From NCBI GenBank assembly GCA_045803545.1, contig JBJMOW010000005.1, positions 1,516,220 to 1,580,219 on the forward strand: a stretch of 64,000 nucleotides of DNA. The letters are read 5' to 3'. A program made the position numbers and the translations under genes. Positions 1,726 through 23,697 of the stretch are shown in pieces (the stretch's first letter is position 1; every line of letters starts with the position of its first letter). Under the pieces are notes generated by a model. The model searched no databases and was not told the DNA's origin. It saw nothing but the letters and a program-made list of their open reading frames with translations. The stretch is from Gemmatimonadaceae bacterium. Its GTDB lineage: Bacteria > Gemmatimonadota > Gemmatimonadetes > Gemmatimonadales > Gemmatimonadaceae.

Positions 1726-1830
1726 GTGACCCGTAGCGCGTAACCCGTAACGCGTAACCGGTAACGCGTTACCCGTTACCCGTTGCCCGTTGCCCGTGGC
1801 CCGTGGCCCGATACCAGTTACCAGTTACGG
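1726..1830. repeat. Degenerate heptamer tandem array (15 units: GTAAC[CG][CG], then GTTACCC/GTTGCCC/GTGGCCC), internally palindromic
   Basis: Read directly in 7-nt register from 1726. Fills the gap between the antiporter stop and the four-helix-bundle stop. Confidence 0.95.
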
Positions 1831-1833
1831 GCG

Positions 1834-2196
1834 TTAGTTCGAGTCGCCCCGCAGTTTTTTCAGAAGACCGTGCAGCATCTTGCGGACATCGATGATGCGA
1901 GGGAGAAGGCTCGTGAAATCCTGCTCGGTCATCAGCTTAAGATCGCGAGCGAGTTGAACGTGTCCCTCGAGTTCGGTTGCTGAAGCAATGGCGTAACCGA
2001 GATAACGCGCAAACTCACGGGGACTCGTATGCGCGCTGCCCTCGACGATATTCGTCGGCACCGACATCGCGGCGCGCAAGAGTTGGTCGCGCACCGTGGC
2101 GCTACGAGTTCCGCGCATGCGCGCAGTGACTCGCTCCGCATCAATCGCGACCTGCAGCGCCGCCTCCCAGACACGAAGTTTCCTGAAGTCAGCCAC
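1834..2196 (-). CDS. Four-helix-bundle protein (23S rRNA IVP / Avd-like family)
   Basis: 120 aa with family motifs F.KL.VW, DQLLRAAMSVPTNIVEG, EFARYLGYAIASATEL and RKMLHGL. Confidence 0.92.
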   Translation of the reverse strand: MADFRKLRVWEAALQVAIDAERVTARMRGTRSATVRDQLLRAAMSVPTNIVEGSAHTSPREFARYLGYAIASATELEGHVQLARDLKLMTEQDFTSLLPRIIDVRKMLHGLLKKLRGDSN

Positions 2197-2270
2197 GCCG
2201 AACCCTACACCGCAGCCCGTCCGGCGCTTCCATCATTTCCCCGCTCCAATCAGCGGAAATCTGGCCGCAG

Positions 2271-2438
2271 CTATCGGGCTTCGGACATCGAACTTCGGAT
2301 GTCGGGCTCCGGGTAACGCGCAACGCGCAACGGGTAACGGGTAACGGGTAACGGGTAACGGGTAACGGGTAACGGGTAACGGGTAACGGGTAACGGGTAA
2401 CGCGTTACGGGTTACGCGTTACAGGAAACGCATTACGT
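2271..2438. repeat. Heptamer tandem array (24 units: NNNTCGG-like, then GTAACGG x9 perfect, then GTTACG[GC])
   Basis: Continuous 7-nt register up to the leuB stop. Its distal part is the reverse complement of 1743-1782. Confidence 0.95.
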
Positions 2439-2439
2439 G

Positions 2440-3555
2440 TTATCCGCGGACAACCAATCCCTCAATCTCCTCTCCAACCTCCACCGTCGAGCACGCCCTC
2501 CCTCCTATCTGCACAATGTCCGCAGTAACGCAGCCCTTCCCGATTGCCGCACCGACAGCAGTCTCCACCGTCACCGCCTCCCGCTCGAGCCCGAAAGAAT
2601 ACCTGAGCATCATCGCCACGCTGAGAATCGTCCCGATCGGATTCGCAATTCCCCGCCCCGCAATATCCGGTGCCGACCCGTGAATCGGCTCATACAGTCC
2701 GCATCGCCCGCCTGCGCCCTTCCGTCTCGCGTCTCCCGCCTCGTCGCCCAACGACGCCGACGGAAGCACGCCGAGCGACCCGGCGAGCATCGAGGCTTCG
2801 TCGGTGAGAATGTCGCCGAACATGTTCTCGGTCACGATAACGTCAAAGTCCCGCGGCTGGCGCAGCAGCATCATCGCACACGCGTCGACCAGCACGTGTT
2901 CCAGCGCCACGTCAGGGAATTCCTCCCGCAAAACACGCGTGACGGTCGATCGCCACAGCCGCGACGTCTCGAGCACGTTCGCCTTGTCGACCGACGTCAG
3001 CTTGCGCCCGCGTGAGCGCGCCAGCCGCGCGGCGACACGCGTGACACGCTCGATCTCGCCGGTCGTATAAGAACAGACGTCGACCGCCCGCTCACCGCCA
3101 TCAACTCGCTCGCGCCGCTTGTCGCCGAAGTAGATGCCGCCCGTCAGCTCGCGCACGACGATGAAATCAACCCCCACGATCAGCTCGGTCCGTAGCGGCG
3201 ACCGGGCCGCGAGCAAAGGATGAACTGTTACCGGGCGAAGATTGGCGTACACCCCCAGCTCCCGCCGCAAGCCAAGTAGTCCCTGCTCCGGGCGCATGTG
3301 CGCGGCGGGATCGTCCCAACGCGGACCACCAACCGCCCCGAGCAGGACGGCGTCGGCGCTCAGACAAAGATCGATGGTTTCCGGCGGGAGCGGGGTTCCG
3401 CGTACGTCGAGCGCGGAGCCGCCGATCAACCCCTCCTCCAGCTCGATCGTATGACCGTATCGTGATGCCACCGCGCGCAGAATTCGCACGCCTTCGGCGA
3501 CAACCTCCGGTCCGATGCCATCGCCGGGAAGGACGGCAATCTTTAGAAACGCCAC
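2440..3555 (-). CDS. leuB: 3-isopropylmalate dehydrogenase
   Basis: Motifs LPGDGIGPEV, VRELTGGIYFG, VDKANVL, ENMFGDILTDEAS and EPIHGSAPDIAG. Confidence 0.97.
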   Translation of the reverse strand: MAFLKIAVLPGDGIGPEVVAEGVRILRAVASRYGHTIELEEGLIGGSALDVRGTPLPPETIDLCLSADAVLLGAVGGPRWDDPAAHMRPEQGLLGLRRELGVYANLRPVTVHPLLAARSPLRTELIVGVDFIVVRELTGGIYFGDKRRERVDGGERAVDVCSYTTGEIERVTRVAARLARSRGRKLTSVDKANVLETSRLWRSTVTRVLREEFPDVALEHVLVDACAMMLLRQPRDFDVIVTENMFGDILTDEASMLAGSLGVLPSASLGDEAGDARRKGAGGRCGLYEPIHGSAPDIAGRGIANPIGTILSVAMMLRYSFGLEREAVTVETAVGAAIGKGCVTADIVQIGGRACSTVEVGEEIEGLVVRG

Positions 3556-4198: not shown

Positions 4199-5607
4199 GA
4201 CAGGCTCCGCACGTCTGCGATCGCTCCGGTCACCGCGGTCGCCGCTGCTGTCAGCGGACTTGCCAGGAAAGTGCGGCCGCCTTTGCCCTGGCGTCCTTCG
4301 AAGTTGCGATTGCTGGTGCTAACCGCGCTCTGGCCCGGCGCGAGCTGATCGCCGTTCATCGCAATGCACATCGAGCAGCCTGCTTCACGCCATTCTGCGC
4401 CGGCTTCCTTGAACACTCGGTCGAGCCCTTCCGCTTCTGCCTGACTTTTGACATTGCGCGAGCCGGGCACGACCAGCATCCGCACTCCGGGTGCAACCCG
4501 ACGTCCACGCATTACCGTTGCCGCCTCGCGCAGATCGGAGATACGCGAGTTAGTACAGCTCCCCACGAACACCACGTCGACAGCGCGGCCGAGCAGTGCC
4601 TGCCCCGGCTCGAGCGCCATGTAGCGGAGCGCCTTGTCGAGATCGGCGCGCTCGGTCCCGCTCGCCGCAGAGTCGGGGTCAGGAACACGTCCGTCGATGG
4701 GAATCGCCATCGACGGGTTGGTGCCGAAAGTAATCATTGGAGCCAGGCTGTCTGCCCGCAGATTCAGCGTGCGATCGTACGACGCGTCATCGTCGCTGAC
4801 GAGTTGCCGCCAGCGATCGACCGCACCATCCCAGTCGCCGCCCGCCGGCGCAAACGGCCGGCCGGCTATGTACTCGGCAGTCGTGTCGTCGGGCGCAATG
4901 AGGCCGGCGCGCGCGCCTGCCTCGATCGACATGTTGCAGATGGTCATCCGGTTTTCCATCCCTAGCGCGCGAATCGCTGAACCGGTGTACTCGAGCACGT
5001 GTCCGGTTGCGCCCCCGACGCCGATCCTGGCGATGATGGCGAGGATGATGTCCTTTGCCGTAACCCCGGGAGGAAGCGTTCCATCGATGGACAGCTGCAT
5101 GCTGCGCGGCTTGCGCTGCAGCAGCGTCTGGGTTGCGAGAACGTAGCCCACTTCCGACGTCCCGATTCCAAACGCCAGCGCGCCAAACGCGCCGTGGGTG
5201 CTGGTGTGACTGTCACCGCAGACGATGGTCATGCCCGGCTGTGTAAGCCCCTGCTCCGGTCCGATGACGTGAACGATTCCCTGCCGACTGTCTTCGAGTC
5301 CGAACAGGCTAATGCCGAATTCGTCGCAGTTCGTCTCAAGCTGCGTGAGCTGCGCCGCCGCCTGGGAATCGAGCACCTGCAGACGGCCATGCGCCCGGGG
5401 CGTCGTCGGCGTCGAATGATCCATCGTCGCCAGCGTCAGCTCGGGTCGCCGCACCCCAACACCGCGACGCCGCAACTCGGCGAACGCCTGCGGCGACGTC
5501 ACCTCGTGCACGAGATGCAGATCGACGTAAAGTACCGCCGGCGTGCTCTCGGTCTCGGCCCGAGCGACGTGGTCGTCCCAAATCTTGTCGACGAGTGTTT
5601 GTGGCAA
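4195..5607 (-). CDS. leuC: 3-isopropylmalate dehydratase large subunit
   Basis: Motifs [34 protein letters not shown] and [12 protein letters not shown]. True start inferred at TTG 5607 (PQTLVDKIW); the in-frame extension upstream is translated repeat. Confidence 0.95.
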
Positions 5608-5732
5608 AGCGGGAAGCGGGAAGCGGGAAGCGGAAAGCGGGAAGCGGGAAACGGGCAACGGGCAACGGGCAACGGGCAACGGGCAACGGGCAACGGGCAA
5701 CGGGTTACGCGTTACGCGTTACGCGTAACGGA
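5607..5732. repeat. Heptamer tandem array (18 units: AAGCGGG-type x6, AAACGGG, CAACGGG x7, TTACGCG x3, TAACGGA)
   Basis: Read directly. Fills the space between the attenuator terminator and the leuC start codon. Confidence 0.95.
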
Positions 5733-5766
5733 AAAAAAAAGGCCCCTCGACATTTTCCGGGGGCCC
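5732..5766 (-). terminator. Intrinsic terminator of the leu attenuator
   Basis: Minus strand GGCCCCCGG-aaaatg-TCGAGGGGCC followed by 9 T. Confidence 0.88.
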
Positions 5767-5790
5767 GTCTGCCGCAATTCGCGAGAAATC

Positions 5791-5868
5791 TTATACGCGC
5801 ACAGACAGACCGCCCCTATCAACGAGGTTCGAAATAAGAATAGAAAGTCGGGAGCCCGTAGCGCGCAT
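5791..5868 (-). CDS. Putative leader peptide of the leuCDB attenuator (MRATGSRLSILISNLVDRGGLSVRV)
   Basis: 25-aa ORF with a Leu/Ile/Val cluster (L-S-I-L-I-S-N-L-V), ending ~25 nt upstream of the terminator. Its 3' part (GGGGCGGTCTG) can pair with CAGACGGGCCCC as an antiterminator. Confidence 0.75.
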   Translation of the reverse strand: MRATGSRLSILISNLVDRGGLSVRV

Positions 5869-6002
5869 TGAACGAATGTCGAAGCAGGAAACGCAAGCCG
5901 CCGTCTGCCGGTTGCGGATTGGGAATGTATTTGTCGCTAACGGGTCGGTCAAGCGTTGTCGGCGCAGACCCTCAAATAAGAATCGTAGTTGCGGCTTGTA
6001 GC

Positions 6003-6624: not shown

Positions 6625-7755
6625 CTACGACTGACGTGGGAGATGGACCGAAAAAACCGTCCCCCGCTCGTCGGACGACATCACTTCAATTCTTCCCTTG
6701 TGCGCGTGGGCGATTCGATCTGCGATGTAGAGTCCCAACCCGAGGTTAGCCGAGGGCCCAGTGGATTGGTTCGGCGTTGTCTGCATCTTCATCGCGTTGA
6801 AGATCCCATCCAGCTGCTCTTCAGGAATAGCAGTGCCGTGATTGTGCACGGCGATGGTGACCTCGTCATCGCTTCCCTGCACATCGACGGAGACGGTGCT
6901 CCGCTCCGATCCATGCTCCAGCGCGTTACCAAGCAGATTGGTCACCGCCTGCGACATTCGCTCATAGTCCCAGTGGCCCGTGAGCGCACCGCGAGCGTTG
7001 ACCTTGATTCTGCGCTTTGGATGCGCGGCCAGAACCTCGTTCACCACCTCGTGCACCAGCTTACCCATGTTCATGCTGGCACGGGTGATCGGAATACCAC
7101 CGCCGAGCCGGCCGCGCGTGAAATCGAGCAGAGCGCCAACCATGTTGTTCATGCGCGTGGTCGCGCTGACTATGCGGGTGGTTAGCGTCAGATGCGGCTC
7201 CTCGAGCTCCTTCGTCTCGAGCATGAACTTCGACGACGTCAACACTGCTCCGATCGGCGATCTGAGATCGTGACCGAGGATCGCGAGGAACATCTCCTTG
7301 GACCTGTCGAGATCCTCAGTGAAGCGCATCACCGACTCGGCGAGTGATTGGTCGATGGCTTCGTTGAATCGTGTCAGGTCGTCGAGGTCGGTCTGGGTTG
7401 GTTGCGACTGACCGCGTATCCAGAGACGGATCACACTGGCGCGCAGCGCGCGGTACTCCGCTACCATCTGGTCGATGGTGAATCCACTTTCGGCCCTGCC
7501 GGTGCCGTGCTTTTCGGCAGCGGTTCGCTCCATGGAGGTTGGCAGCGGAGCGAGCCCTCTCGATTTTGCCGACTGCTCGAGATCGCCTTGCGGTGTCTGA
7601 AGATCCCTTGCAATCACCATCAGCATCTCGCTGGCGTGGTCGCTGAGCGCAGTAATACCCATCGATGCGCTCGCTGGAGCGCAGGTCTTCGCGAACGCCC
7701 CCCACTCCGCCAGAATGAGTTCGCGATTTCCGAGTATGAAATCGGCCAGCCGCAT
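6625..7755 (-). CDS. Sensor histidine kinase with RsbRD_N-like N-terminal domain
   Basis: N-terminus MRLADFI..IL.EW..FA and HGTGRAESGF..MVAEYRALR. H-box LGHDLRSP, N-box NLLGNALEH, G-box GLGLYI. Confidence 0.9.
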   Translation of the reverse strand: MRLADFILGNRELILAEWGAFAKTCAPASASMGITALSDHASEMLMVIARDLQTPQGDLEQSAKSRGLAPLPTSMERTAAEKHGTGRAESGFTIDQMVAEYRALRASVIRLWIRGQSQPTQTDLDDLTRFNEAIDQSLAESVMRFTEDLDRSKEMFLAILGHDLRSPIGAVLTSSKFMLETKELEEPHLTLTTRIVSATTRMNNMVGALLDFTRGRLGGGIPITRASMNMGKLVHEVVNEVLAAHPKRRIKVNARGALTGHWDYERMSQAVTNLLGNALEHGSERSTVSVDVQGSDDEVTIAVHNHGTAIPEEQLDGIFNAMKMQTTPNQSTGPSANLGLGLYIADRIAHAHKGRIEVMSSDERGTVFSVHLPRQS

Positions 7756-7858
7756 CGTATTGGCCGCGGCGGTTGCCGTCTGTGGCATGAGTGCGGGCGC
7801 GGGTAGTTGCAAGGAATTCAGGTCTGTGTGTAGCGGGCGGTCAGATAACCCATGGATG

Positions 7859-8278
7859 TCATTGGTCGTTTACTTCGGTCCCGGACATGCGCGTCGCGCG
7901 CTGGGCCGTAGCGCGCTTGGCAAGTTCCTGAGAAACGGTGGACAGAAAATCCTTGTAGGAAAGCGGTTTCGCGATGTAGCCGTCACAGCCCGCGGCGCGA
8001 ATCCGTGCCTCATCGCCTTTCATCGCCAACGCGGTCAGGGCGATGACGGGAATCTCGCGGGTGACGAGGCCGGCCTTGAGCAGCGCAGTCGCCTTCAGGC
8101 CGTCCATGCCGGGAAGTTGAATATCCATCAGAATGAGATCGGGCTGCTCGTTGTCTGCCAGCGCAACTCCTGCCTCCGCATCGAGTGCTTTGAGCACCGT
8201 GTGTCCCGCGTTCTCGAGCAGGAATGTGGCGAGGGTCATGTTGGCGGGGTTGTCTTCGACTACCAGCACTTTCGCCAT
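7859..8278 (-). CDS. Single-domain response regulator (CheY/DivK-like)
   Basis: Motifs VLVVEDN, LILMDIQLPGMDG, VIALTA and GCDGYIAKP. Confidence 0.92.
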   Translation of the reverse strand: MAKVLVVEDNPANMTLATFLLENAGHTVLKALDAEAGVALADNEQPDLILMDIQLPGMDGLKATALLKAGLVTREIPVIALTALAMKGDEARIRAAGCDGYIAKPLSYKDFLSTVSQELAKRATAQRATRMSGTEVNDQ

Positions 8279-8279
8279 A

Positions 8280-10409
8280 TCAAACTGCCGCGTGGCGATG
8301 GGAGATGGCTCGCCGGACTTCGCTCGCGAACTGACCGCCGGTGAAGTCACCTTTTTCCAGAATGGTGGCTACGAGTCCGTTCAACTTGCCTCGATCCTCG
8401 GCGGTGATTGTCTTGGACGTGACGATCACGATCGGTATGCTCGCGGTGCCGACGTGCTCATGAAGCGCTGCTACGACGTCGAAGCCGGTCACGTCGGGCA
8501 TCATCAAATCGAGCACGATCAGATCGGGCAGCTCTCGTCGCGCGATTTCAATCGCGTCGCCGCCGCCGTAAGCGCGCAGGACATTGCTCGCGAGCCCCTC
8601 AACGTGGAATGCGACCAGGTCCACTGCGCGAGGGTCGTCGTCGACGATCAGGATCTTGAGCTGTGCGCCAGTGTTCAGCGGAACCAGCCCCAGTGCGACG
8701 AGCGATTCATACAGCTCCTGACGTGACAGCGGTTTTTGCATCACCGCCGCGGCGCCGAGCGCGAATCCCTTATTTCGGTCGGCGACTATGGAGACTATCA
8801 CGATCGGTACGTGCTTGAGCGAGGGCATCTGCTTCAGGCGCCCGAGCAACTCCCAGCCATCCATCCCTGGCAGCATGAGATCGAGGGTGATCAGCGATAG
8901 CGCTTGCTGTTCGGCAAGGACGAGCGCCACTTCCGCACTCGGGGCGTGAAGGATCGTGAACCCCTCGGCTTCGAGCTGAACTCGAATGAGCTCGGCGGAC
9001 TTGAAATCATCCTCGATGACGAGAGCGATGCGATCGCTTGGCAGAAGCTCGACGGCGACGGTTACGTTGATTTGCTCTTCAACGGCTTTCTCGTCCTCGG
9101 ATCTCAAGGGAAGCCATACCGTGAATCGCGAGCCTTTGCCCTCGGTGCTCTCCACGGCCAGCGTTCCACCATGGAGCTCTGAGAGCAGCTTGATCATCGC
9201 CAGGCCAAGTCCTGTTCCCTGATACTTCCTGGCGAGACCGCTGTCGATCTGACTGAACGGCTTGAACAACGCCTCCATGCCCTCCGGCGTGATGCCGATT
9301 CCAATGTCAGTGACGCTGATTTCGAGAAACTCAGCGAAGCCATTGTTGGCCAGCGGAAAGACGCGGCCGGTCGCGTCGTACTGGAGACGGCCAACCTCGG
9401 CTCTCGAAACGCGGCTCGCTTGCAGTGAGACTTCGCCGCCGTCGGTGCTGAACTTCACCGCGTTGGAGAGCAGGTTGTAAACGATCTGCTTTACCTTCCG
9501 CGCGTCGGCGCGAATGGAACCGAGCTCACGCGGCGCATTCAAGGTGAGCCTGATGTGGCGCGCCTGCGCTTTTTCCTTGACGATCGACAGGCTGTTCGCG
9601 AACAGGGACGATATCTGCACTGGCTCCAGATCCAGCATCATCTTCCCGGCTTCAACCTTCGAAAGATCCAGGATGTCGTTGATCAGGGACAGCAGATGCT
9701 TGCCGCTGCTGAAGATGTCGCCGATGAATTTTTTCTGTTGATCGGTGAGGTTTCCGATCAGGCCGTCCCCCAGCACCTCTGAGAAACCAATGATCGCGTT
9801 GAGCGGTGTTCTCAGCTCATGCGACATGTTGGCGAGAAATTCGGACTTCATCCGGCTAGCTTCCTCGAGCTCGACGTTCTTCTGCTGCAGCCGCTGTTCG
9901 AGCTTTCTGCGTTCGTCCTCGATCTGCTTGCGGGCAGTATTGTCTGTCCCAATCAGCAGGTATCCGATAATGATGTCCTTCACGTCGCGCAGTGCGGTTA
10001 CCGACACCACGGCCGGAAAGCGGCTCTTGTCCTTACGGATGTAGGTGAGCTCATAGATGTCCTCGATGCCACGCGAGGCCTTGAACACCAACGCCTCGAA
10101 GCCGGGCGCGATCTCCGTTCCGACTTCGGCGCTCAGCGCTCTGGCACGAGCGACGATTTCCTGCGCGTCGGAGATGTCGGCAGGCGTAATCTTGTTCACC
10201 ACTTCCACCGCTTCGTAGCCAAGCATGCGCTCGGCGCCAACATTGAAGATCTGGATCACCCCGTTCGCGTCGGTGGCGATACTGGAGAAGTTGGCGCTGT
10301 TGAAGATTGCGTTCTGTAGAGCGTCAGCGCTGAGAACTGCCGCGGTACGACGGCGCCACAGGTTGAAGACGCCGTTACCGTTACCGTTGGTGTGCGGGTG
10401 CGTGGTCAT
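8280..10409 (-). CDS. Hybrid PAS histidine kinase with two receiver domains
   Basis: PAS domain (FNVGAERMLGY), [29 protein letters not shown], and two REC domains (TLDLMLPGMDG; VLDLMMPDVTG). Confidence 0.93.
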   Translation of the reverse strand: MTTHPHTNGNGNGVFNLWRRRTAAVLSADALQNAIFNSANFSSIATDANGVIQIFNVGAERMLGYEAVEVVNKITPADISDAQEIVARARALSAEVGTEIAPGFEALVFKASRGIEDIYELTYIRKDKSRFPAVVSVTALRDVKDIIIGYLLIGTDNTARKQIEDERRKLEQRLQQKNVELEEASRMKSEFLANMSHELRTPLNAIIGFSEVLGDGLIGNLTDQQKKFIGDIFSSGKHLLSLINDILDLSKVEAGKMMLDLEPVQISSLFANSLSIVKEKAQARHIRLTLNAPRELGSIRADARKVKQIVYNLLSNAVKFSTDGGEVSLQASRVSRAEVGRLQYDATGRVFPLANNGFAEFLEISVTDIGIGITPEGMEALFKPFSQIDSGLARKYQGTGLGLAMIKLLSELHGGTLAVESTEGKGSRFTVWLPLRSEDEKAVEEQINVTVAVELLPSDRIALVIEDDFKSAELIRVQLEAEGFTILHAPSAEVALVLAEQQALSLITLDLMLPGMDGWELLGRLKQMPSLKHVPIVIVSIVADRNKGFALGAAAVMQKPLSRQELYESLVALGLVPLNTGAQLKILIVDDDPRAVDLVAFHVEGLASNVLRAYGGGDAIEIARRELPDLIVLDLMMPDVTGFDVVAALHEHVGTASIPIVIVTSKTITAEDRGKLNGLVATILEKGDFTGGQFASEVRRAISHRHAAV

Positions 10410-10414
10410 GGCCG

Positions 10415-10675
10415 CTACTCCTTCGCCGGTGTCGTATCGCCAGCCATGAATTTCTTCCATGCCCGCGCGCTCATCATCCAGGAGCCCTGATTACGCGCAC
10501 GAAGGCGCTGTTCCGTCACTCCGATGATGCGTGGGACACGGCGTTTGTGCAGCGTGGTTCCGTTTTCGTTGAAGACCGCGGGGGCCGATTTCGGGCTGGC
10601 AGCAGCGGCGGCTTTCCGTTGATCGAGAAAGCCGAATAGGGTCTGTCTTAGACTCTTCCTGTTGTTGCTTTTCAT
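10415..10675 (-). CDS. Small basic hypothetical protein, paralog of 6003-6263
   Basis: 86 aa from ATG 10675. First gene of the kinase operon. Confidence 0.7.
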   Translation of the reverse strand: MKSNNRKSLRQTLFGFLDQRKAAAAASPKSAPAVFNENGTTLHKRRVPRIIGVTEQRLRARNQGSWMMSARAWKKFMAGDTTPAKE

Positions 10676-10923
10676 TTGTGCGCCTGGCATGGAGGGCGTC
10701 GCCAGTAGCGCCGGATGCTGCCTTAATCGAGGCAGATCGAAATGCGGGCTGGTGGGATCTTCCCGCACACATTCTTCATGAGAACGTGTGCTAAATATAA
10801 CTCATTACACGCTTTGGTGGGCTTATTCCGACTGAAATACACAGGCCTGCTCCATCATCAAATCACGGAACAAGACGTGCGCTGACTCTGTCAATACCTG
10901 TAGTAACTCGCCTGACGCGTCCG

Positions 10924-11445
10924 ATGCCCGCATCCAGAAACAAACCCCCGAAACCAGCCAGCCGCACCCGCATCGGCGATCGGCTTCGACACGATCTTCC
11001 GACCCTCGTCGTGCGGTATGTGGACCGGCTGCGCACCGATCCGTTGTTCTCGAGAGCGGAGTCGCTGCCCAATCCGGTTCTGGAAGCCCACGCAATGAGC
11101 TTCCTCGGCGATCTCTTCCAATCGCTCGTGGTGCTCGAGAACGCTGAAGGACTCGATGATGCCGATGAATCAGAGCTGCTGGCCGAAGGCAGCCGGATCC
11201 AGCGTTTCATTTCCGAGCTGCACGGTCGCCAGCGACACCGGCTTGGCTGGACAGAGCACGCACTCGAACGTGAGTATCAGATCCTCAGAGAGGAAGTCGA
11301 CTCGCTGGTGCGACGACACGCGCCGGATGCGGATCGCGCCGGTGATTTCAGCTGGGCGATCGATGTACTAAACCTCCGGCTCAACAACGCGCGCGCCGCG
11401 AGCGTCGCCGCCTATGAGACGGCGGCGAGCGAGAGTCGAACCTAG
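10924..11445 (+). CDS. Stand-alone RsbRD_N-like (globin-like sensor) domain protein
   Basis: Motif ELHGRQRHRLGW...LEREYQILREE. Clear paralog of 34394-34894. Confidence 0.7.
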   Translation: MPASRNKPPKPASRTRIGDRLRHDLPTLVVRYVDRLRTDPLFSRAESLPNPVLEAHAMSFLGDLFQSLVVLENAEGLDDADESELLAEGSRIQRFISELHGRQRHRLGWTEHALEREYQILREEVDSLVRRHAPDADRAGDFSWAIDVLNLRLNNARAASVAAYETAASESRT

Positions 11446-12553: not shown

Positions 12554-12565
12554 CAGGGTCACTCA

Positions 12566-15870: not shown

Positions 15871-15980
15871 GGCGACCTCGGGTGGGTGAGTCTTGGGGAT
15901 TCTGATAAGCTCAGCCGTTTGGCCGCGGGTCCAAGGTATGTCAGTAAACAAATCGCGCCAGAGGGAGATGCTTTGCTGCA

Positions 15981-16107
15981 GACTGAGGCCTGAGGACTAA
16001 GTGCATCGATCATCGCGGACTAAGTGAGGATTGCAGCCTAAAGCGCTTTAGTCATCAATCATCGATTAGTCAGCAATCACAGATGCCTTTAGTCATCAGG
16101 CCTCAGT
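15981..16107. repeat. Palindromic intergenic element (family A), full copy
   Basis: GACTGAG GCCTGAG GACTAAG TGCATC ... GATGCC TTTAGTC ATCAGGC CTCAGT. Homologous to 23549-23697 and 26954-27087. Confidence 0.85.
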
Positions 16108-16111
16108 TCAG

Positions 16112-16141
16112 TTGAAATATGTCTAGTTACTAGACATATTT
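16112..16141 (+). promoter_or_regulatory. Sigma70-like promoter overlapped by a perfect 27-bp palindromic operator
   Basis: TTGAAA (16112) with a 17-nt spacer to CATATT. AAATATGTCTAGT-T-ACTAGACATATTT at 16115-16141. ATG follows at 16146. Confidence 0.7.
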
Positions 16142-16145
16142 GGTC

Positions 16146-16670
16146 ATGATCGCAAGGCAGACGGCGGCGGCGGCGCGGGCAGACCTGAAATGGCTGACGA
16201 ACTCAGCCGCGCTGCTGCGTCGGCGGCTCCGCCACACCCCCGAGGAAGCACAGTGGTGGGGTCTGGTGCGGCTGCTCGTTACCGACCTCGAAATGACGCT
16301 CGCAACAGCAGCGGAAGTCGCAACCGCTGCACTGCGCTCCTTGCCGGAGACCAACCGCAGACGACCACGCCGACACGCTCCGACCCCGGCCAAACAGGAT
16401 CCGACTGGCACCGCTGCAATAGTGATCGATCTCCCGCGCTATCAATCGACTTTTCTTGCCAATCTGTCCCGTGCGCTCATCCTCGAGACTCCCCGTCGCC
16501 GTGGCCGAACCAGCGAAGTCACTCGCGGTAACGCCGTCGAGGCAGCCCGCGATTATGGAATCGATGTCGGCTTGTTGCGTTCGGCACTAAACCGAACGCC
16601 GAGCGAGCGTCTGCAACTGCTGGACGCAAATCTGGAATTCGTTCGCGCGGCATCGCGCCAGTCAAAATGA
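16146..16670 (+). CDS. Putative DNA-binding antitoxin-like partner of the nucleotidyltransferase
   Basis: C-terminal GIDVGLLRSALNRTPSERL resembles small partners found upstream of NTase genes. ATGA overlap with the next gene. Confidence 0.6.
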   Translation: MIARQTAAAARADLKWLTNSAALLRRRLRHTPEEAQWWGLVRLLVTDLEMTLATAAEVATAALRSLPETNRRRPRRHAPTPAKQDPTGTAAIVIDLPRYQSTFLANLSRALILETPRRRGRTSEVTRGNAVEAARDYGIDVGLLRSALNRTPSERLQLLDANLEFVRAASRQSK

Positions 16671-17149
16671 GCTTCGCTTCCATGCTCGGCGGCCTCACGA
16701 AAATAAAGATTCGGTTCGTCGTCATCGGCGGCGTCGCCGCCGCAATCCACGGTTCGTCGCGAGTGACGAATGACCTCGACATTTGCTACGACGCTGGAGA
16801 TAGAGCGAATGTCGCCGCGCTCGCCAGGCTACTCGCAGGGTGGAAGGCTTATCCGCGCGGTGTCGAGCAAGATTTGCCATTTATCATGGACGACCGCACG
16901 ATGCGGGGCGCTCCCATAATGACACTGGCAACTACCGAGGGAGACCTCGACATCATGGATCGGGTGGCCGGAGTCGGCGACTACGCAATCGTTCGCAAGC
17001 ACTCGCAAGAGATCACCGCACTCGGTTTGTCTTTTCAGGTCATCGACCTGGCGTGGCTCATAAAGGCCAAGCGCGCGGCGGGCAGACCGCGCGACTTCGA
17101 TCACCTTCCGGAGTTGGAGGCGCTGCTGGAGCTCCGCAAAAAGCCGTAA
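16667..17149 (+). CDS. Nucleotidyltransferase (Pol-beta superfamily)
   Basis: Motifs FVVIGGVAA..HG..RVTNDLD and LIKAKRAAGRPRD..HL.EL. Confidence 0.85.
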   Translation: MSFASMLGGLTKIKIRFVVIGGVAAAIHGSSRVTNDLDICYDAGDRANVAALARLLAGWKAYPRGVEQDLPFIMDDRTMRGAPIMTLATTEGDLDIMDRVAGVGDYAIVRKHSQEITALGLSFQVIDLAWLIKAKRAAGRPRDFDHLPELEALLELRKKP

Positions 17150-17219
17150 GGCGTATGCAACTGTGGCACTGGTCGACCATCGCTGCCCCTTCGGGGGGTT
17201 GCCGAAACGTAATTTGCTC

Positions 17220-17274
17220 TTGACGCGCGCCCCGCGGAGATGCTAGTGTATTAGCACCTGCTAGTGTGCTAGCA
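17220..17274 (+). promoter_or_regulatory. Promoter with tandem palindromic operators for the BlaI-family repressor
   Basis: TTGACG (17220) with an 18-nt spacer to TAGTGT, preceded by TGc. Two TGCTA-N6-TAGCA palindromes at 17241-17256 and 17259-17274. Confidence 0.72.
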
Positions 17275-17296
17275 GGTCGATACCCCGTTCAGTGTC

Positions 17297-17728
17297 ATGG
17301 CCGCGGTCCTCAGGAGGCCGATGTTGGGAAAACGCGAAGGAAAGCAACTTTCACTGGACGCACTCGGAGCGCGCGAGCGGGAGATCGTCGAGACGTTGTT
17401 CGCCCAACAGGAAGCGACGGTCGCCGACGTGCTTGGCAGCCTCCGGTCTCCACCCAGCTACTCCGCTGTGAGAGCGATGCTCACCCTCCTCGAGCAGAAG
17501 GGTTACGTAAAACACCGTCGAGATGGACTCCGCTACGTCTACTCGCCCACTGTGAACACGGCTGACGCGAAAGGCCCGGCGCTGCGGAAACTGGTCGATA
17601 CCTTTTTCGGCGGCTCACCCGCCCGCGCGGTAGCGACACTATTGGAGCTGCCGCAGGGCGCAGACGAAGAGCTGACGATCAAGGATCTGCGGAAAGCGGT
17701 GCTCGCCGCAAGGAAGCAAGGGCGATGA
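17297..17728 (+). CDS. BlaI/MecI/CopY family transcriptional repressor
   Basis: Motifs LGARERE.V, PPSYSAVRAML..LEQKG and LVDTFFGGS. Alternative start at 17321. Confidence 0.92.
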   Translation: MAAVLRRPMLGKREGKQLSLDALGAREREIVETLFAQQEATVADVLGSLRSPPSYSAVRAMLTLLEQKGYVKHRRDGLRYVYSPTVNTADAKGPALRKLVDTFFGGSPARAVATLLELPQGADEELTIKDLRKAVLAARKQGR

Positions 17729-18984
17729 CCGGGCAGCTTCTGATCACGCTCGCAATTCGCACGGGCGCCATCGCGGCGCTCTCGCTCGTCGCGGGTGTGG
17801 TGCTGCGAAAAGCCCGGCCGAGCACCCGCAGCGTGCTCTGGAATTCGGCGCTGTTTGCTTGCCTGATTACGCCGCTCGCGTGGATCGCCGCGCCGCCGGT
17901 AACTGTATCCGTGCCCGCGCGATTCGTCTTTCAACACCTGGACGCGGTGTCCCCAACGACAATCGCGTCGCTCGCACCTGCTGCTAGGAATGCCAAGGTA
18001 TCGGATGCGACCCAGCGGTTCTCCGACCCTGAAGGCTTCGAGACAAACGGTCAGGCGCTGATCGCCCTTTGGTTGGCGGGGGTGGTGCTGGTCGGGTTCC
18101 GATTCGTTCGCCAGGTGCTGGCCGCGCGTAGACTCGTGCGTGGCGCCACCGCGGCCAAACATGCGCTGTTGCGCGATATACTTGCCCAAGCGAGAGCATC
18201 TCTCGAAATACAAAGAGACGTAGCGGTGCTCCATTCCACGCAGATCGACATCCCTCTCGCCACTGGCATTCTGCGACCGGTAATTCTCCTGCCAGCGTCG
18301 GTCAGCGAATGGAGTGCGGAGGAGCTGCGCATCGTTCTTCTCCACGAGCTTGCGCACGTCCGGCGGGCCGACATCGTTGCCCGCGTGGCTGCGATGTGCG
18401 TCTGCGCTATTCACTGGTTCAATCCCCTCGTCTGGCTGCTGGGCAACCTTTCCACTCGCGACGCCGAGCTGGCTGCCGACGATCTCGTTCTTTCCGCCGG
18501 CGTTCGGCCCTCCACTTATGCCGATGCGCTTCTCAACGTCGCCGGCAGTGTGCTCCGGTTGCCCCTGATCCAGCCGGCGGTGCCATTGGCTCGGCGCGCT
18601 TTTCTGGCGCACCGGGTCCACGCCATCCTGCGTGAATCGAAGCGTCGTGGAGAAATCGGCCGCGCCGCGGGAATGCTCGTGGTCTCAGCCACATGCGCTG
18701 CAGCTTTGCTGGCAGCCTGCGTGAGGCTTTCGCCCCAGTCAGCGGCCGCTTTCACGACGACCTCAGATAATTCAACCTGGATCGGCGGTGCAGCCGACGA
18801 GTTGATTCGGGCGCTCGACGACGCGAGTCCGCAGGTGCGGATGGCAGCCGCGCACTCACTGGGACAGCTCCACGCCCAGCGTGCGCGCCCACGGCTGCTC
18901 GATCTCGCCAACGATGCAGACAAAAACGTCCGCTACGAGGCCAATCTGGCGCTCAGCGCACTCGATGCCCGGCAATCACCATGA
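17725..18984 (+). CDS. M56 (BlaR1-type) membrane metallopeptidase with C-terminal HEAT repeats
   Basis: Motifs LLHELAHVRR.D, HWFNPLVW and ELAADDLV. HEAT repeat ALDDASPQVRMAAAHSLG. Confidence 0.9.
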   Translation: MTGQLLITLAIRTGAIAALSLVAGVVLRKARPSTRSVLWNSALFACLITPLAWIAAPPVTVSVPARFVFQHLDAVSPTTIASLAPAARNAKVSDATQRFSDPEGFETNGQALIALWLAGVVLVGFRFVRQVLAARRLVRGATAAKHALLRDILAQARASLEIQRDVAVLHSTQIDIPLATGILRPVILLPASVSEWSAEELRIVLLHELAHVRRADIVARVAAMCVCAIHWFNPLVWLLGNLSTRDAELAADDLVLSAGVRPSTYADALLNVAGSVLRLPLIQPAVPLARRAFLAHRVHAILRESKRRGEIGRAAGMLVVSATCAAALLAACVRLSPQSAAAFTTTSDNSTWIGGAADELIRALDDASPQVRMAAAHSLGQLHAQRARPRLLDLANDADKNVRYEANLALSALDARQSP

Positions 18985-20270
18985 CATTGAAACTGTTCCT
19001 CGCCGCTCCGGTGATCATAGCGACATTCGCGCTCCATCGGGGATCGACGAGTGCGTCGCCGGTCGCAGCGCAGCCTGACTGCGGCTGCACCGATGATCCT
19101 CCGTTCGTCCGCAACCCTTTTCGCGTCAAGCCAACGCGCGCCGATCTCGCGCGAATCACCGACGACCTGGCGCGTGATTGTGCGACCGCAGCAATTGCCT
19201 CGCGTAAACTCGGGATGGTCGCAGATGCGTCCTCCGTCGCACCGCTGATCAACGCGCTCCATCACAAGTCGTGTCGGGTGCGGACGGCGGCGGCGGACGC
19301 GCTCGGCGAACTCCGCGATCGGCGCGCAGTAGCTGCGCTCGTCGCCGCGCTGGCCGATTCCGACCCCCGCGTCCGCTCGAGCGCCGGGTGGTCGCTGGCA
19401 AGCATCCCCGATTCTACGGCGGTCCCGGCGTTGTTGATCGCCGTGACGGACAGCGAGAAACACGTGCGGCAGGCGGCGGCCTCGGCACTTGGCGCAATCG
19501 GTGATCCGCGCGCCGGCCCGGCGCTGACGAAAGCTTTACGCGATTCGGAGAAAGACGTTCGACAAGCTGCCGCGCAAAGTCTCGGTCAGCTGCGGCAACC
19601 TGCAGCGATCGCTCAGGCAAAGGAATCTCCCGCCGAGCGTTGCGCGTGGGAGGGCTGGCTGCCGCCCGCGAGAGGGCGCGAGCGAGTGCGCAACTCGAGG
19701 CGACTCGATGCCGCTTCAGTCAATCGTCTCACCGTGCTCACTCGCACGGGCGACAAAAACTCGAGGATGCTCGCGGCGGAGGAGCTAGCTGCGGCTCAGG
19801 ATCCAGCGTCGTTGCAGTCGCTGATCGACATGACCGCCGATTCAGATCCGATGGTTCAGGAGGCAGCCCTCAGGGCGCTCGGGAGGCGCGGCGTGACGTC
19901 GGCGACTCCGATCGTCGCGCGTTTCGCTCAGTCGTCGAACTCGCACCTGCGTCAGGCGTCCATCTGGTCGCTGGGTCAGCTTCAAGATCCGTCCGCAATC
20001 AATGCCGTTATCGCAGCGAGCCGAGACACCAGCAAGCACGTACGCAACGAGGCAGCGTGGGCTCTCGGCCTCATCGGTGGGTCGCGCGCGCTATCGCCGA
20101 CGAGGCAACTGGCCTACGACGACAATCCGCAGGTGCGAATGGCAGCCGCGTGCTCTCTGGATATGATTCACGTCGATGATCCTCAGGTGCGCGGAACTCT
20201 CATTCGCCTGGCGAGCGATAGTGATGCAGTTGTGCGGGAGGTCGCGCGCTGGACACTAACACGCATGTAA
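18981..20270 (+). CDS. Secreted HEAT-repeat (PBS lyase-like) protein
   Basis: Signal peptide and about 10 repeats of L.D....VR..AA.ALG. Confidence 0.88.
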   Translation: MTLKLFLAAPVIIATFALHRGSTSASPVAAQPDCGCTDDPPFVRNPFRVKPTRADLARITDDLARDCATAAIASRKLGMVADASSVAPLINALHHKSCRVRTAAADALGELRDRRAVAALVAALADSDPRVRSSAGWSLASIPDSTAVPALLIAVTDSEKHVRQAAASALGAIGDPRAGPALTKALRDSEKDVRQAAAQSLGQLRQPAAIAQAKESPAERCAWEGWLPPARGRERVRNSRRLDAASVNRLTVLTRTGDKNSRMLAAEELAAAQDPASLQSLIDMTADSDPMVQEAALRALGRRGVTSATPIVARFAQSSNSHLRQASIWSLGQLQDPSAINAVIAASRDTSKHVRNEAAWALGLIGGSRALSPTRQLAYDDNPQVRMAAACSLDMIHVDDPQVRGTLIRLASDSDAVVREVARWTLTRM

Positions 20271-20300
20271 GGGTGGAGCTGTGCACGATTGCGCAGAGCG

Positions 20301-22967
20301 TCAATGTCCCACGCGCCCTGCGGCGGCTTGATCCTCGATCAGCGCCTGGACCCGCGGATCCTTCATTCGCCATGCGAACTCGGGATCCTTCAACTCCGCG
20401 ATCGCATATCCGTTTGCGCTCGTAAAGCACCGCTCGAGAAATGGCATCATCGCCTCGGCGTCGCCCAGAAATCCGTAGACCGCTGCCTTGGTGCACGACA
20501 GCTGGATCGCCTCGACACCCCTCGGATACATCGCGATCGTCTGACTAACGCTCGCTTTCTCGAGCAGATCGAGCGCGGTCGTGCGATCGCCGTACAACGC
20601 AGCCAACCACGCCAATACCTCATACTGACCGCGGCGCACGTAGGCAGACTGGTTCGGATCGTCGGTCATCCGCTTCTCCAAACGCCACGCTGAATCGGCC
20701 AGCGTCCTCGCACGCTTGTAATCGCCACGGCTGGCGAACAGCTCCGCCTTCTCCGCATAAAAATTGACGCTGTCCAGAGCTGACCCGGGCGCGAACGACG
20801 ACAATGGCGTCGTTGCCAGCTCGTTCTGCAGCGCGGCGTCGCCGTGCCGCAGCATCTCACCGTCGGCTGCTCCGATTCTTCCGCCGCGCGCCCTCAGCTC
20901 TCGCACAGCGCGCGACACGCCTGCCACATCACCAACGTGTTCGGCGAGGGTCGCCGCGTGATAGATGGGACCCGTTCCAACAGGGTCCAGCGTTCGCTCC
21001 CGCGCCACCATGTTCGCGGCATCGCCGTATCGCCGCAGCGCGATCGCTGTCGCGAAGCTCATCGCGAGTACGTATTTCGACGCCGGCGCGAGCGGCAGGA
21101 TCCGCTTCACCGCTTCCCACGCCCCGGCGGAATCGCCGACGACGAGCAGTGCATGCTGCTCGTGGACGAGGAGCTCGATACTCGACGGATTCTCGCGCAA
21201 CGCGCGTCGCAGAATCGCCAGTGCTTCCGCAGGTCGATTGAATCCACGGAACGCGAGAGTAGCCACCGCGTTCGGCTGATTTGGATCGAGCTCCAATGCG
21301 CGACGCGCGACGGCCGCCGCGGAGTCGAGCATCTTCGTCCCGCCCGAGTACGACATGATCGCCAGCGCCTGCGACGCGAGGCCGACCGCGTCGGCATAAT
21401 TTGGATCGCGCCGATACGCGTACTCGAACTCGCGCAGGGCCTTCTCGTACTCGGCGTACGACGCGGTGGTGTTTTCCTCATAGATGCGCTTCCCACGCAC
21501 GACGGCGGCGAACGCTCCGGTGTCAGCCGTCGCGCGCATCGCCATCGTCGTCCGCTCGCGCGGCGCCATTGCCACGTCCAGCGCCTCGGCTACTCTCGTC
21601 GCGACGCGGGACTGAATGGTGAATGGATCCGCGGGCGAGACGATCTCCGGCTCACCGGCCCACTGCGTCGTCGCGTCGGACACGCGTATCAGCTCGGGCG
21701 TCACCCGTACCAGCGGTTGATTGTCGGCGCCCTTGGCCCATCGCACCGACGCGCGCAGCAGGTAATCGGCGCCCAGCGATTTGCCCAGTTGTTGTACGCT
21801 CGTGCCGGAGGAAGTCGCCAATGACGACACGCTCTTGCGATCGATCACGCTCAAGCCCTCGAGTCGCGCCAGCTTGCCGCTGATTGCGTCGCGGAGCCCG
21901 TCAGCGAAGCTGGGATCGGCGCCGTCACCTGCACTCTCGAATGGCAGCACTGCGATTAGCGGCGGGTGATCGTCCGCTGCGGATCGCGCCCGCCAGATCG
22001 CTCCACCACCGAGTACGAGCGCGACGATGAGCGCGGTGACGAGCACGCCGAACCGGCGGCGCGATGGAATCGCCGCGCGGGGGATTCGAATCCGCGATGG
22101 ATTGTCGATTGCCGAGAGCAGCTCGACTCCTGACGCCGGCCGATCTGACTTCTGTTTCGACAGGCACACCGATACGAGATCGGAAATCGCGCGCGGGACT
22201 TTCGAGCCGGAGTTAGAGAGTGGTCGAGGGGTGTCTGACATCTGCGCCGTCAGCAGATTCTGCGGCGACGAGATGTGATCGCCGAATGGATGCTTCCCCG
22301 AGATCAGCTCGTAGGCGACGATGCCCCACGCATAGACGTCCGCGCGCTGGTCAGTTCCCGGATCACCGGCCGCCTGTTCCGGCGCCATGTACATCGGCGT
22401 GCCGACGTTGTCGCCCGGCTGGGTTATCTGCGCCGCGCTTTGCCTGGTGAGAGGAAGCGCTTCTTTCCTCGCCGCCGAGACGGCCTTGGCGATCCCGAAA
22501 TCGGTGACGACCGCGGTGCCTTCGCTCAGCAGAATGTTCTCGGGCTTGATGTCGCGGTGGACGATTCCCTGCCTGTGCGCGTAGGCAAGGGCGGCGGCGA
22601 CATCGCGCAGAACGGCCAGACTCTCGTCGAGCGGAATCGTCCCTTTTCTGATCCGATCGCGCAGCGACTGTCCGCGCACGAACGGCATCGTATAGTAGGG
22701 ATATCCTCCCGCCGTCTGACCCGAGCTGAGCACCGGCAGGATGTGCGGCTCCTGGAGCGCTGCGGCGAGCTTTACCTCGCGCGCAAATCGCGCCGCCGAG
22801 AAGGCGAAGGTAAGCTCAGGTGGCAGGACTTTGACGACGATCTCGCGGCCGAGCGCTTCGTCGCGGGCGACGAAGACGCGCGCCATTCCGCCCGCGAGCA
22901 GCTCTTTGGTGATGGTGTAGTGGCTGCTCCCGAATTCCTGCTGGATTTGGTCGTAAAGGTCGTCCAA
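20301..22967 (-). CDS. Hanks-type Ser/Thr protein kinase with TM, TolB_N-like and TPR domains
   Basis: Motifs GGMARVF, HRDIKPEN, DFG and GTPMYMAPE, then a TM helix, IAVLPF and TPR-like helices. Confidence 0.93.
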   Translation of the reverse strand: MDDLYDQIQQEFGSSHYTITKELLAGGMARVFVARDEALGREIVVKVLPPELTFAFSAARFAREVKLAAALQEPHILPVLSSGQTAGGYPYYTMPFVRGQSLRDRIRKGTIPLDESLAVLRDVAAALAYAHRQGIVHRDIKPENILLSEGTAVVTDFGIAKAVSAARKEALPLTRQSAAQITQPGDNVGTPMYMAPEQAAGDPGTDQRADVYAWGIVAYELISGKHPFGDHISSPQNLLTAQMSDTPRPLSNSGSKVPRAISDLVSVCLSKQKSDRPASGVELLSAIDNPSRIRIPRAAIPSRRRFGVLVTALIVALVLGGGAIWRARSAADDHPPLIAVLPFESAGDGADPSFADGLRDAISGKLARLEGLSVIDRKSVSSLATSSGTSVQQLGKSLGADYLLRASVRWAKGADNQPLVRVTPELIRVSDATTQWAGEPEIVSPADPFTIQSRVATRVAEALDVAMAPRERTTMAMRATADTGAFAAVVRGKRIYEENTTASYAEYEKALREFEYAYRRDPNYADAVGLASQALAIMSYSGGTKMLDSAAAVARRALELDPNQPNAVATLAFRGFNRPAEALAILRRALRENPSSIELLVHEQHALLVVGDSAGAWEAVKRILPLAPASKYVLAMSFATAIALRRYGDAANMVARERTLDPVGTGPIYHAATLAEHVGDVAGVSRAVRELRARGGRIGAADGEMLRHGDAALQNELATTPLSSFAPGSALDSVNFYAEKAELFASRGDYKRARTLADSAWRLEKRMTDDPNQSAYVRRGQYEVLAWLAALYGDRTTALDLLEKASVSQTIAMYPRGVEAIQLSCTKAAVYGFLGDAEAMMPFLERCFTSANGYAIAELKDPEFAWRMKDPRVQALIEDQAAAGRVGH

Positions 22968-23002
22968 GGAGCCCTTTGAGGCTGGCGACCAAATGTAGGG
23001 AC

Positions 23003-23050
23003 GGGAGGCGGGAGGCGGGAGGTGACTGAGGGCCGATGACTAAGGGCATC
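23003..23050. repeat. GGGAGG[CT] x3 fused in register to a 28-bp left arm of family A
   Basis: GGGAGGC GGGAGGC GGGAGGT GACTGAG GGCCGAT GACTAAG GGCATC. 23023-23050 matches 23549-23576 at 27/28. Confidence 0.9.
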
Positions 23051-23114
23051 GGCCCGCAGTCTTATCCGTTTAGCAACGGTGTGATTGGCTGGGCGTCAAA
23101 GGGGTCCGTGGTTT

Positions 23115-23555
23115 ATGGCGACCTCAGCGCATCTTCGCGCAATGTCGCATTTCGGGCCGCCCATTTCGCACGAGACGGCGAACGATCCTCTCTTCCGGAT
23201 GCGAGCCTACTCGCTGGCGGCTGACCTGGTCAAGTTGGCTTGGGAAGACGCGAAGAGCCTGAGCGCTGAGGCTGTGAGCGAGCGCATCGCGGGTCAGCTG
23301 TACGCGGCGGTGAATTCCATCACTGCGAATATTGGGGAAGGGTACTCGCGCAGCTCAGGAAAAGACCGAGCGCGCTTTTTCGAGTACGCACTCGGATCTG
23401 TGCGCGAGAGCATGAGTTGGTACCAGGGCGCGCGGCCAGTGCTGGGAGATGTCGTGCGCGGCCGACTCGACTCTCTGGAGGAAATTCGGCGGATGCTCAT
23501 CGCCATCATTCCCAGGGAGAGAGGTGCTGGTATTCGCCGTAGAGCGTCTGACTGA
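23115..23555 (+). CDS. Four-helix-bundle protein (IVP/Avd-like), second divergent copy
   Basis: Motif QLYAAVNSITANIGEGYSRSSGKDRARFFEYALGSVRE. Start uncertain (ATG 23115 or 23142). Stop codon lies inside the repeat. Confidence 0.9.
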   Translation: MATSAHLRAMSHFGPPISHETANDPLFRMRAYSLAADLVKLAWEDAKSLSAEAVSERIAGQLYAAVNSITANIGEGYSRSSGKDRARFFEYALGSVRESMSWYQGARPVLGDVVRGRLDSLEEIRRMLIAIIPRERGAGIRRRASD

Positions 23556-23697
23556 GGGCCGATGACTAAGAGCATCTATGGTTGCTGACTAATCGATGAG
23601 CGAGGACAATCGAGGATTAGGGCCGTTGTCCTCGATTGTCCTCAATTCTCACTTAGTCCGCGATGATCGATGCCGTTAGTCATCGGCCCTCGGTCAG
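23549..23697. repeat. Palindromic intergenic element (family A), full copy
   Basis: TGACTGAGGGCCGATGACTAAGAGCATC ... GATGCCGTTAGTCATCGGCCCTCGGTCA terminal inverted repeats, with an inner GAGGACAATCGAGGA/TCCTCGATTGTCCTC stem. Confidence 0.9.

Follow-up and report, generated by a model that had tools for sequence, protein, structure and literature searches.

Four-helix-bundle genes paired with their own inverted 7-periodic repeats point to a transposase-free protein-plus-repeat system in a soil Gemmatimonadaceae genome

Here we describe, in a 64,000-nucleotide (nt) stretch of a Gemmatimonadaceae genome (hereafter the window; GenBank assembly GCA_045803545.1, contig JBJMOW010000005.1, positions 1,516,220 to 1,580,219), two genes for four-helix-bundle proteins of the PF05635/TIGR02436 family, each set between repeat arms that are inverted with respect to each other. 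The genome as a whole carries eight such genes and eight repeat families, mostly of 7-nt period, with each gene cognate to one family and each family occupying about 5-65 further sites. Between related genomes the genes and their hairpins relocate, invert, and are gained and lost. Taken together, these observations point to a transposase-free protein-plus-repeat system that is real, general and undescribed, and that could account for the 7-base repeats that have long been a puzzle in many bacteria.

To our knowledge, no function has been assigned to the stand-alone PF05635 family, for which structures have been solved since 2006. Heptamer repeats are over-represented in many bacteria without explanation, as stated in the introduction of PMC4692102. 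Tying each gene to a repeat family puts the heptamer question and the function of PF05635 under one direct test, and the eight orthogonal protein-repeat pairs in a single genome constitute a ready specificity panel. Should the protein drive copying or inversion, the system would form a class of mobile DNA not described before and a cause of rearrangements at the ends of genes; should it act on RNA instead, the proteins would be a new family of programmable-looking RNA-binding rings.

Each gene pairs with one repeat family

Gene 1 (1834..2196, minus strand, 120 amino acids; PF05635, E 2e-25; TIGR02436) lies between genes for a Na+/H+ antiporter and leuB, and gene 2 (23115..23555, plus strand; PF05635, E 2e-12; TIGR02436; start codon uncertain, 23085-23142) between a Ser/Thr kinase gene and an open reading frame (ORF) without a Pfam match; a preliminary description of the window had noted both as lone genes unrelated to their neighbours. 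That description also placed both genes between repeats in 7-nt register. At gene 2 the repeat is a degenerate 7-periodic arm rather than a tandem array (lag-7 match 0.45 against a mean of 0.26), a point that had gone unmentioned, as had the mutual inversion of the flanking repeats. The downstream arm of cassette 1 (1721..1828), a heptamer array of family I/J, is inverted relative to 2341-2447 over 108 nt with 83% complementarity, and the upstream arm (2310..2447), made of 15 units of CGGGTAA and variants, directly follows the leuB stop region. The whole cassette folds with its arms paired (z -11.3), thus placing the ORF in the loop of a terminal stem. In cassette 2, a complete family-A hairpin (23548..23697) lies over the stop codon of gene 2, and a partial family-A arm upstream of the gene (23023..23051, plus strand) is inverted relative to 23668-23697 and at the same time a 28-nt direct repeat (96%) of 23549-23576; a short family-I array of three units (23002..23022) stands in front.

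The leader of gene 1 (2197..2309, minus strand) contains a conserved AAnGATG-like motif about 35-41 nt before the start and probably an internal promoter; a scan of it gave no Shine-Dalgarno match and no sigma-70 consensus site. A leaderless sigma-70 promoter was considered and rejected, as the TAnnnT box occurs in just 14 of 90 leaders (6% of all genes) and the scan found none.

The same arrangement recurs throughout the genome (3.7 Mb, 60% G+C, 6 contigs, 93% complete; contained in soil metagenome runs), which has nine PF05635/TIGR02436 matches at eight loci, one of them frameshifted. At all eight, the two flanks of the gene are reverse complements of each other (local scores 48-241), and arms of different loci do not cross-match (scores 17-29; 3 of 1500 random segments reached 50). 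Among 3369 other genes predicted by a simple purpose-made gene caller, three are enclosed by such an inverted pair. Self-comparison of the genome yielded about 90 gene-free palindromes of 95-350 nt, and when 88 gene-free elements were clustered with the eight cassettes, seven genes linked to 23, 14, 7, 4, 3, 3 and 2 hairpins, each gene to a single family and none to the arms of another gene. The arms of gene 1 found no match among the clustered gene-free doublets. We assign this gene to the GGGAAGC/CGGGTAA arrays (families I and J) because a 92% identical orthologue in a congener (G044) carries both unit types in its arms, and because the array at 5607 grades from one unit type into the other. 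The preliminary description took the repeats of both cassettes to recur at gene-free sites: all the repeats that it listed exist, and, as it did not say, the two genes use two different families. All five other sites of the ACGGGTA/ACGCGTT subtype (J) lie no more than 20 kb from gene 1, in a cluster of genes for amino-acid biosynthesis (G000:C4:1501930-1521945, where G000 denotes this genome), and the other families are about 3-fold enriched within 50 kb of their own gene (16 against 5.4 expected).

Could the gene be passive cargo, with arms spreading by slippage or through an unidentified host or mobile enzyme while the four-helix-bundle gene rides along with an unrelated function? The three enclosed ordinary genes fit this explanation, as do array-rich genomes that lack the gene, and linkage alone would yield covariation of arms and proteins. 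Against it stand the pairing in all eight genes despite mutual protein identities of 19-66% (seven of the eight compared), with one gene per family, the recurrence of the pairing across many bacterial phyla and viral contigs, and a fixed unit consensus and orientation that replicate in an independent set (see below). We therefore consider passive carriage improbable.

The repeats have a characteristic form and position. Period 7 dominates short tandem repeats genome-wide, with 97 Tandem Repeats Finder rows at a score of at least 50, compared with 1, 0, 6, 1 and 2 rows for periods 6, 8, 9, 10 and 11, and the top self-match lag is 7 or 14 in eight of nine seed sets, family C preferring 18. Arm hits are intergenic in 344 of 372 cases, and the anchors of family B mostly span 175-181 nt. 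Of the 62 stop-side ends of 49 anchored hairpins, 50 are 30 nt or less from a stop codon, and 19 of the 49 hairpins have convergent genes on their two sides (background 104 of 1118).

This position behind stop codons, together with an RNase III-cut intervening sequence (IVS) in Coxiella, makes a role at the RNA level the main rival: the protein, as a pentamer, would bind transcribed hairpins in 3' untranslated regions or leaders, shielding them from RNase III or affecting mRNA stability or translation, and the gene would be kept as a regulator or antidote, with host processes that have nothing to do with it spreading the repeats. As RNA the arms form strong folds, and the unit consensus is specific to one strand in its orientation to the gene. 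The related protein Avd binds RNA (10.1101/2023.10.23.563531), RNase III cuts the Coxiella 23S IVS, which has an S23p ORF, a 28-bp stem and GACAGAT heptamers (PMC4990558), and a regulator that binds repeats and is mobile itself was proposed by MacGregor in 2015 (PMC4679880). However, by itself an RNA-level role leaves unexplained why the gene is always found in the loop of a hairpin of its own family, why it relocates and inverts, and why eight parallel families exist beside unrelated genes, and a position behind stops also follows from selection against insertion into promoters and genes. On balance we judge it rather unlikely.

A side observation concerns the frameshifted gene (G000:C6:61416-61731), whose family G keeps about 11 other sites and offers a natural test of decay after protein loss.

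Genes and hairpins relocate, invert, and come and go

Judging from a median ratio of nonsynonymous to synonymous substitution (dN/dS) of 0.08 (maximum 0.20; 33 of 36 pairs computable, the pairs not being independent), the four-helix-bundle genes are under purifying selection. Their surroundings are shared by few orthologues: an outer flank is common to 1 of 78 pairs for gene 1, and to 0 of 45 and 0 of 55 pairs in two other clades. In G044, gene 1 is flipped relative to leuB. Read by eye, the site behind leuB in 19 readable congeners holds a flipped gene in one, hairpins of other families in seven, short arrays in two and no evident repeat in nine. In congeners, the site upstream of the kinase gene holds, among the matches listed, nothing, family-A hairpins or half arms, other families, or, in G078, a different four-helix-bundle cassette. 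In G014 the kinase gene and the next ORF are adjacent with only a family-A hairpin between them, whereas this genome has an arm, the gene and a hairpin with the 28-nt direct repeat, an arrangement that suggests recombination-like entry of the gene into a hairpin, or exit from it. No joint excising gene 2 or a whole hairpin was seen among the best 15 of 94 listed for 7400-27300 in four soil runs, whose contigs are fragmentary and uninformative on this point.

Gene-free hairpins behave in the same patchy manner: G060 has none at 39781, 42597 and 44060, three sites that are occupied in G014. The comparison of orthologous loci called for in the preliminary description thus found sites empty or filled by other families, and neither a lack of repeat enrichment nor conserved synteny without repeats in relatives, the two results it had named as contrary to its proposal, was obtained. 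Its idea of a mobile or self-propagating unit survives in that the gene changes sites and gene-free copies exist, but each gene is single-copy and the unit is therefore not a self-amplifying transposon. Of its two readings of the gene-free arrays, as empty sites or as non-autonomous relatives, the first has to be given up: the hairpins are the elements themselves, present or absent.

The arms also enclose a host gene. A 128-amino-acid membrane-protein gene (locus L542, G000:C4:1137705-1138417) lies between 112-nt family-C arms that are 90% complementary. Matched, lineage-specific arm pairs surround it in 3 of 15 genomes (this one, G060 and G075); 12 of the 15 have no arm pair, and G014 has one upstream arm. 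The gene is inverted in this genome relative to the congeners.

Miniature inverted-repeat transposable elements and insertion sequences share with this system inverted ends, gene-bearing and gene-free forms and patchy presence at orthologous sites. Unlike them, it has ragged ends, no target-site duplication, and a single-copy 'autonomous' form without a transposase fold. In the 49 hairpins, no duplication stood out from shuffles: direct repeats of at least 5 nt near both ends occurred in 14% against 11% of shuffles, and abutting direct repeats of at least 2 nt in 2% against 6%; the elements are old, and duplications may have eroded. The Y1 transposase PF01797 is absent from this genome and occurs in 12 of 109 congeners; the search for a transposase that could recognise the ends covered Y1 genome-wide, and DDE and other families were not searched for. 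All tallies over 109 genomes include seven marked unpublished (G050-G054, G117 and G118), on none of which sequence-level claims rest.

Two further observations belong here. Among congeners, the porin-antiporter block by leuB (window 408-2440; loci L033, L035 and L043) takes several orientations, and its breakpoints lie at repeat sites. Genome-wide homogenisation of the arms was entertained and dropped as not general, the evidence being mixed.

A candidate repeat-reading protein

PF05635 is present in 38 of 41 related genomes and in 23 of 24 congeners. Relatives supplied 128 loci, 119 of them with full flanks; about a quarter of the loci were chosen for DNA similarity to the cassettes of the window, which biases the set towards arms. 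Inverted arms scoring at least 40 flank 107 of the 119, compared with 2.2% of mismatched pairs. Of 80 cross-phylum GTDB loci, two were dropped for short flanks, and 56 of the remaining 78 reach a score of 30 (shifted controls 1 of 147), as do 37 of 48 viral loci, some of them duplicates (shifted controls 0 of 88). Inverted arms also flank 18 of 25 cyanobacterial loci, and in 61 cyanobacterial genomes the family is found in 14 of 16 rich in R-G-periodic arrays and in 11 of 45 others.

A tandem heptamer common to both arms was found at 71 of 138 loci and then at 47 of 104 new loci. Read on the sense strand, the unit of the upstream arm has the consensus R-G-N-Y-N-Y-N. All 47 new loci have a purine at position 1, 46 of them have G at position 2, and at 39 the consensus fits the sense strand better than the antisense strand. 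Arms are shared in 148 of 261 pairs at 65% protein identity or more, and in 21 of 6175 pairs below 55%. As a hint only, unit position 3 varies together with the residue that directly follows NIxEG, in two sets in which tree independence is not demonstrable: at column 50, Gln goes with T (12/15 and 13/14), Cys with C (5/11 and 8/12) and aromatic residues with G (18/27 and 8/16), and the tree-independent pairs are too few (4, 2 and 3), Gln/T alone leaning the expected way. Two other patterns were discarded. A code linking Tyr at profile column 58 to G at unit position 3 fell from 24/24 to 17/24 once the register was unbiased and did not replicate (2/6 against 4/28, p 0.28), and a generic 7-periodic pattern across four relatives was too noisy at this GC content.

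The predicted structure of the gene 1 protein is all-helical (predicted local distance difference test score 96.6), matches the Xcc0516-like fold of 2GSC with template-modelling (TM) scores of 0.88-0.91, and also superposes on BT_0352 and on Avd, the accessory protein of diversity-generating retroelements (DGRs; TM 0.78, 12% identity). Structures 2GSC and 2RLD each have five chains, and by analogy with them, and with the description cited in PMC4990558, these proteins would form a homopentameric ring, in which the invariant polar residues Q38, R41, S45, N49, E52, R64, S72 and E75 could form a predicted binding site.

We therefore envision, at about even chances, a two-part system in the manner of REPIN-RAYT repeats, in which the Avd-like subunit recognises its own 7-nt-periodic arms, and host recombination or template switching copies them. 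Each PF05635 gene would encode an Avd-like four-helix-bundle subunit, with the fold taken from the model and the pentamer from Xcc0516, BT_0352 and Avd. The pentamer would read its own arm family on single-stranded or hairpin nucleic acid, probably with one R-G-N-Y-N-Y-N unit per subunit; Avd itself grips an RNA stem-loop with all five protomers through flipped-out bases (10.1101/2023.10.23.563531). As observed, the gene occupies the loop of one hairpin of its own family, and the remaining 5-65 sites are gene-free hairpins or solo arms, mostly close behind stop codons. By stabilising or pairing arms, the protein would allow host recombination or replication template-switching to copy them to new sites. 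The same process would keep paired arms matched, invert the enclosed DNA and shift the single gene from hairpin to hairpin; the inversions, relocations, gains and losses themselves are seen in the comparisons, and the part that we give to the protein in causing them is an inference. Both binding and mobilisation by the protein are thus put forward conditionally. No dedicated nuclease or reverse transcriptase (RT) would be needed, and the ragged ends and lack of target duplications fit the absence of such enzymes.

The likeness to Avd also raises the possibility of a retro-element, in which the protein chaperones hairpin RNA to an RT acting in trans, as Avd does for the DGR RT, and cDNA copies integrate. 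The shared fold favours this, as do elements that are short, structured and located at gene 3' ends. Yet the RT family RVT_1 has no match in this 93% complete genome and occurs in 23 of 109 congeners (9 of 31 near-complete ones), set against the 23 of 24 with PF05635, no target duplications were seen, and a retro-element would leave the inversions unexplained. We give it only a slim chance, and the partner in trans, RT or HUH nuclease, that the preliminary description had suggested did not materialise, neither RT nor Y1 being found here.

REPIN-RAYT systems (10.1101/2021.07.10.451892) are the closest comparison. They too consist of non-autonomous, hairpin-forming, extragenic inverted doublets, in several populations per genome, with a single-copy gene per population flanked by that population's own repeats, as found here. 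In contrast, the cognate gene here encodes a four-helix bundle instead of an IS200-like Y1 transposase, the arms are 60-170 nt long and 7-periodic, and the gene moves between sites and flips, in contrast to RAYTs, which keep to a single extragenic space. The Y1 transposase and the fixed site of the gene are defining features of REPIN-RAYT. In the helix 45 IVS of Coxiella burnetii (S23p; PMC4990558), a terminal inverted repeat likewise holds a member of this protein family in its loop, the ORF being preceded by heptamers, and the GACAGAT unit reads A-G-A-T-G-A-C in the register found here. The cassettes here differ in lying between protein genes and in having longer arms, each with gene-free relatives; neither is inside a 23S or 16S rRNA gene, and Rfam gave no match in the window. 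The rRNA IVS would then be one of the places where this system has landed, and not the form that defines it. DGR Avd (PDB 4DWL, 8UB7-8UBE) shares the fold, and its pentamer binds the cognate stem-loop of its own element, but identity is 12%, and no RT, template or variable repeat lies beside the window genes (template-variable repeat pairs were not searched for separately).

Published heptamers include GGGAATC of Xanthomonas and GGGGA(T/C)T of Nostoc (PMC4692102), and TAACTGA of Beggiatoaceae, Cyanobacteria and Bacteroidetes (PMC4679880). Like the arms, they are intergenic, close behind stop codons and frequently paired in convergent orientation (70 pairs in Xcc). One cyanobacterial PF05635 gene (L534) is flanked by GGGACTG, and two others (L473 and L476) by AGTTATC, the complement of TAACTGA; the unexplained heptamers of Beggiatoaceae and Nostoc match arm units. 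Neither 'helix bundle' nor 'S23' occurs in the main text of PMC4692102 or PMC4679880, supplements aside, and MacGregor's guess that a repeat-binding protein might be a mobile element named none (PMC4679880). Within the literature covered, a link between heptamers and S23p is in print for the Coxiella IVS alone (PMC4990558), and a full-text search, with supplements and most subscription papers beyond its reach, found no paper linking PF05635 genes to intergenic repeat families. A wider reading, which we offer tentatively and hold to have less than an even chance, is that bacterial heptamer repeats have their missing trans-acting factor in the PF05635 pentamers. These would be rings that read repeats by a code open in part to decipherment (the residue after NIxEG against unit position 3) and that propagate their own hairpins, relocate genes, and enclose and invert host genes without a transposase or RT, with DGR Avd and rRNA IVSs as offshoots.

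Several results weigh against a protein that reads and spreads its own arms. The family-B motif occurs in at least two copies only in this genome, G060 and G014 out of 109, the latter two holding the cognate gene's two closest homologues, which speaks for cognate pairing; on the other side, ten genomes with 66-71% identical homologues have at most one motif match each. The family-E motif is found in this genome, G014, G075 (17) and G060 (3), and a close homologue of its cognate gene was found only in G014, so that G075 and G060 (86-87% complete) carry the motif without one having been found in them. Co-occurrence of motif and gene is confounded by kinship, as G014, G060 and G075 are the closest relatives, and covariation of arms and proteins can stem from physical linkage. 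Among cyanobacteria above 5 Mb the association weakens to 14 of 16 against 5 of 11 (p 0.03), and array-rich G142 and G175 have no PF05635 or TIGR02436 match. Arms fall below threshold at 22 of the 78 loci from across phyla and at 12 of the 119 from relatives. The clade of gene 2 (clade 1) shares flanks in 19 of 190 pairs and therefore moves less. Finally, the hairpins at 39781 and 42597 are 77% alike here, no more than either is to its G014 orthologue (77%), while the G014 pair is 88% alike.

As a separate observation, G142 and G175 have hundreds to more than 1000 R-G-periodic array matches, and another enclosed gene may play the role there.

Remaining repeats of the window

Period-7 arrays lie at 1729-1828, 2310-2436, 5607-5730, 23002-23022, 32680-32706 and 63909-64000, and related non-tandem repeats at 15980, 23023, 23549, 26953, 44058 and 45820. 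The gene-free array of family I/J at 5607..5730 abuts the leuC start codon behind a leu attenuator-like hairpin, with shorter arrays at this place in G075 and G115; within 5607-5870, its 17 units stand between the leucine-attenuator-like hairpin, which has a leader ORF, and the leuC start, replacing the ribosome-binding region. Gene-free family-I arrays also occur at 32680..32706, where G014 has an A-like hairpin, and directly after a stop codon at 63909..64000, where the array runs off the window. Family A is represented by gene-free hairpins at 15981..16107 (folding z -8.0) and, between convergent genes, at 26953..27087, and by a solo arm at 45828..45881 (plus strand).

The family-B hairpins at 39781 and 42597 and the family-C hairpin at 44135 add to the preliminary description. 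The first (39781..39985), whose cognate gene is at C4:382346, is absent in G060; the second (42597..42804) is inverted relative to it and corresponds to a clean empty site in G060 (gap 25 against 279 nt). A composite at 44060..44296, a family-A arm followed by a family-C hairpin with 18-nt units, also faces an empty site in G060. Between the two inverted hairpins (39781-42804) lie three or four small genes (AraC regulator, cupredoxin, GNAT), on a segment that might be able to invert, and a pilin-like gene adjoins the left hairpin (39781) in G014. A 19-nt tandem repeat of 2.6 copies between convergent genes (35854-35902), which we place in none of the families, is single-copy in G014 and G060. 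Elsewhere in the genome, a 343-nt palindrome (G000:C4:354549-354891) is unrelated to the eight families.

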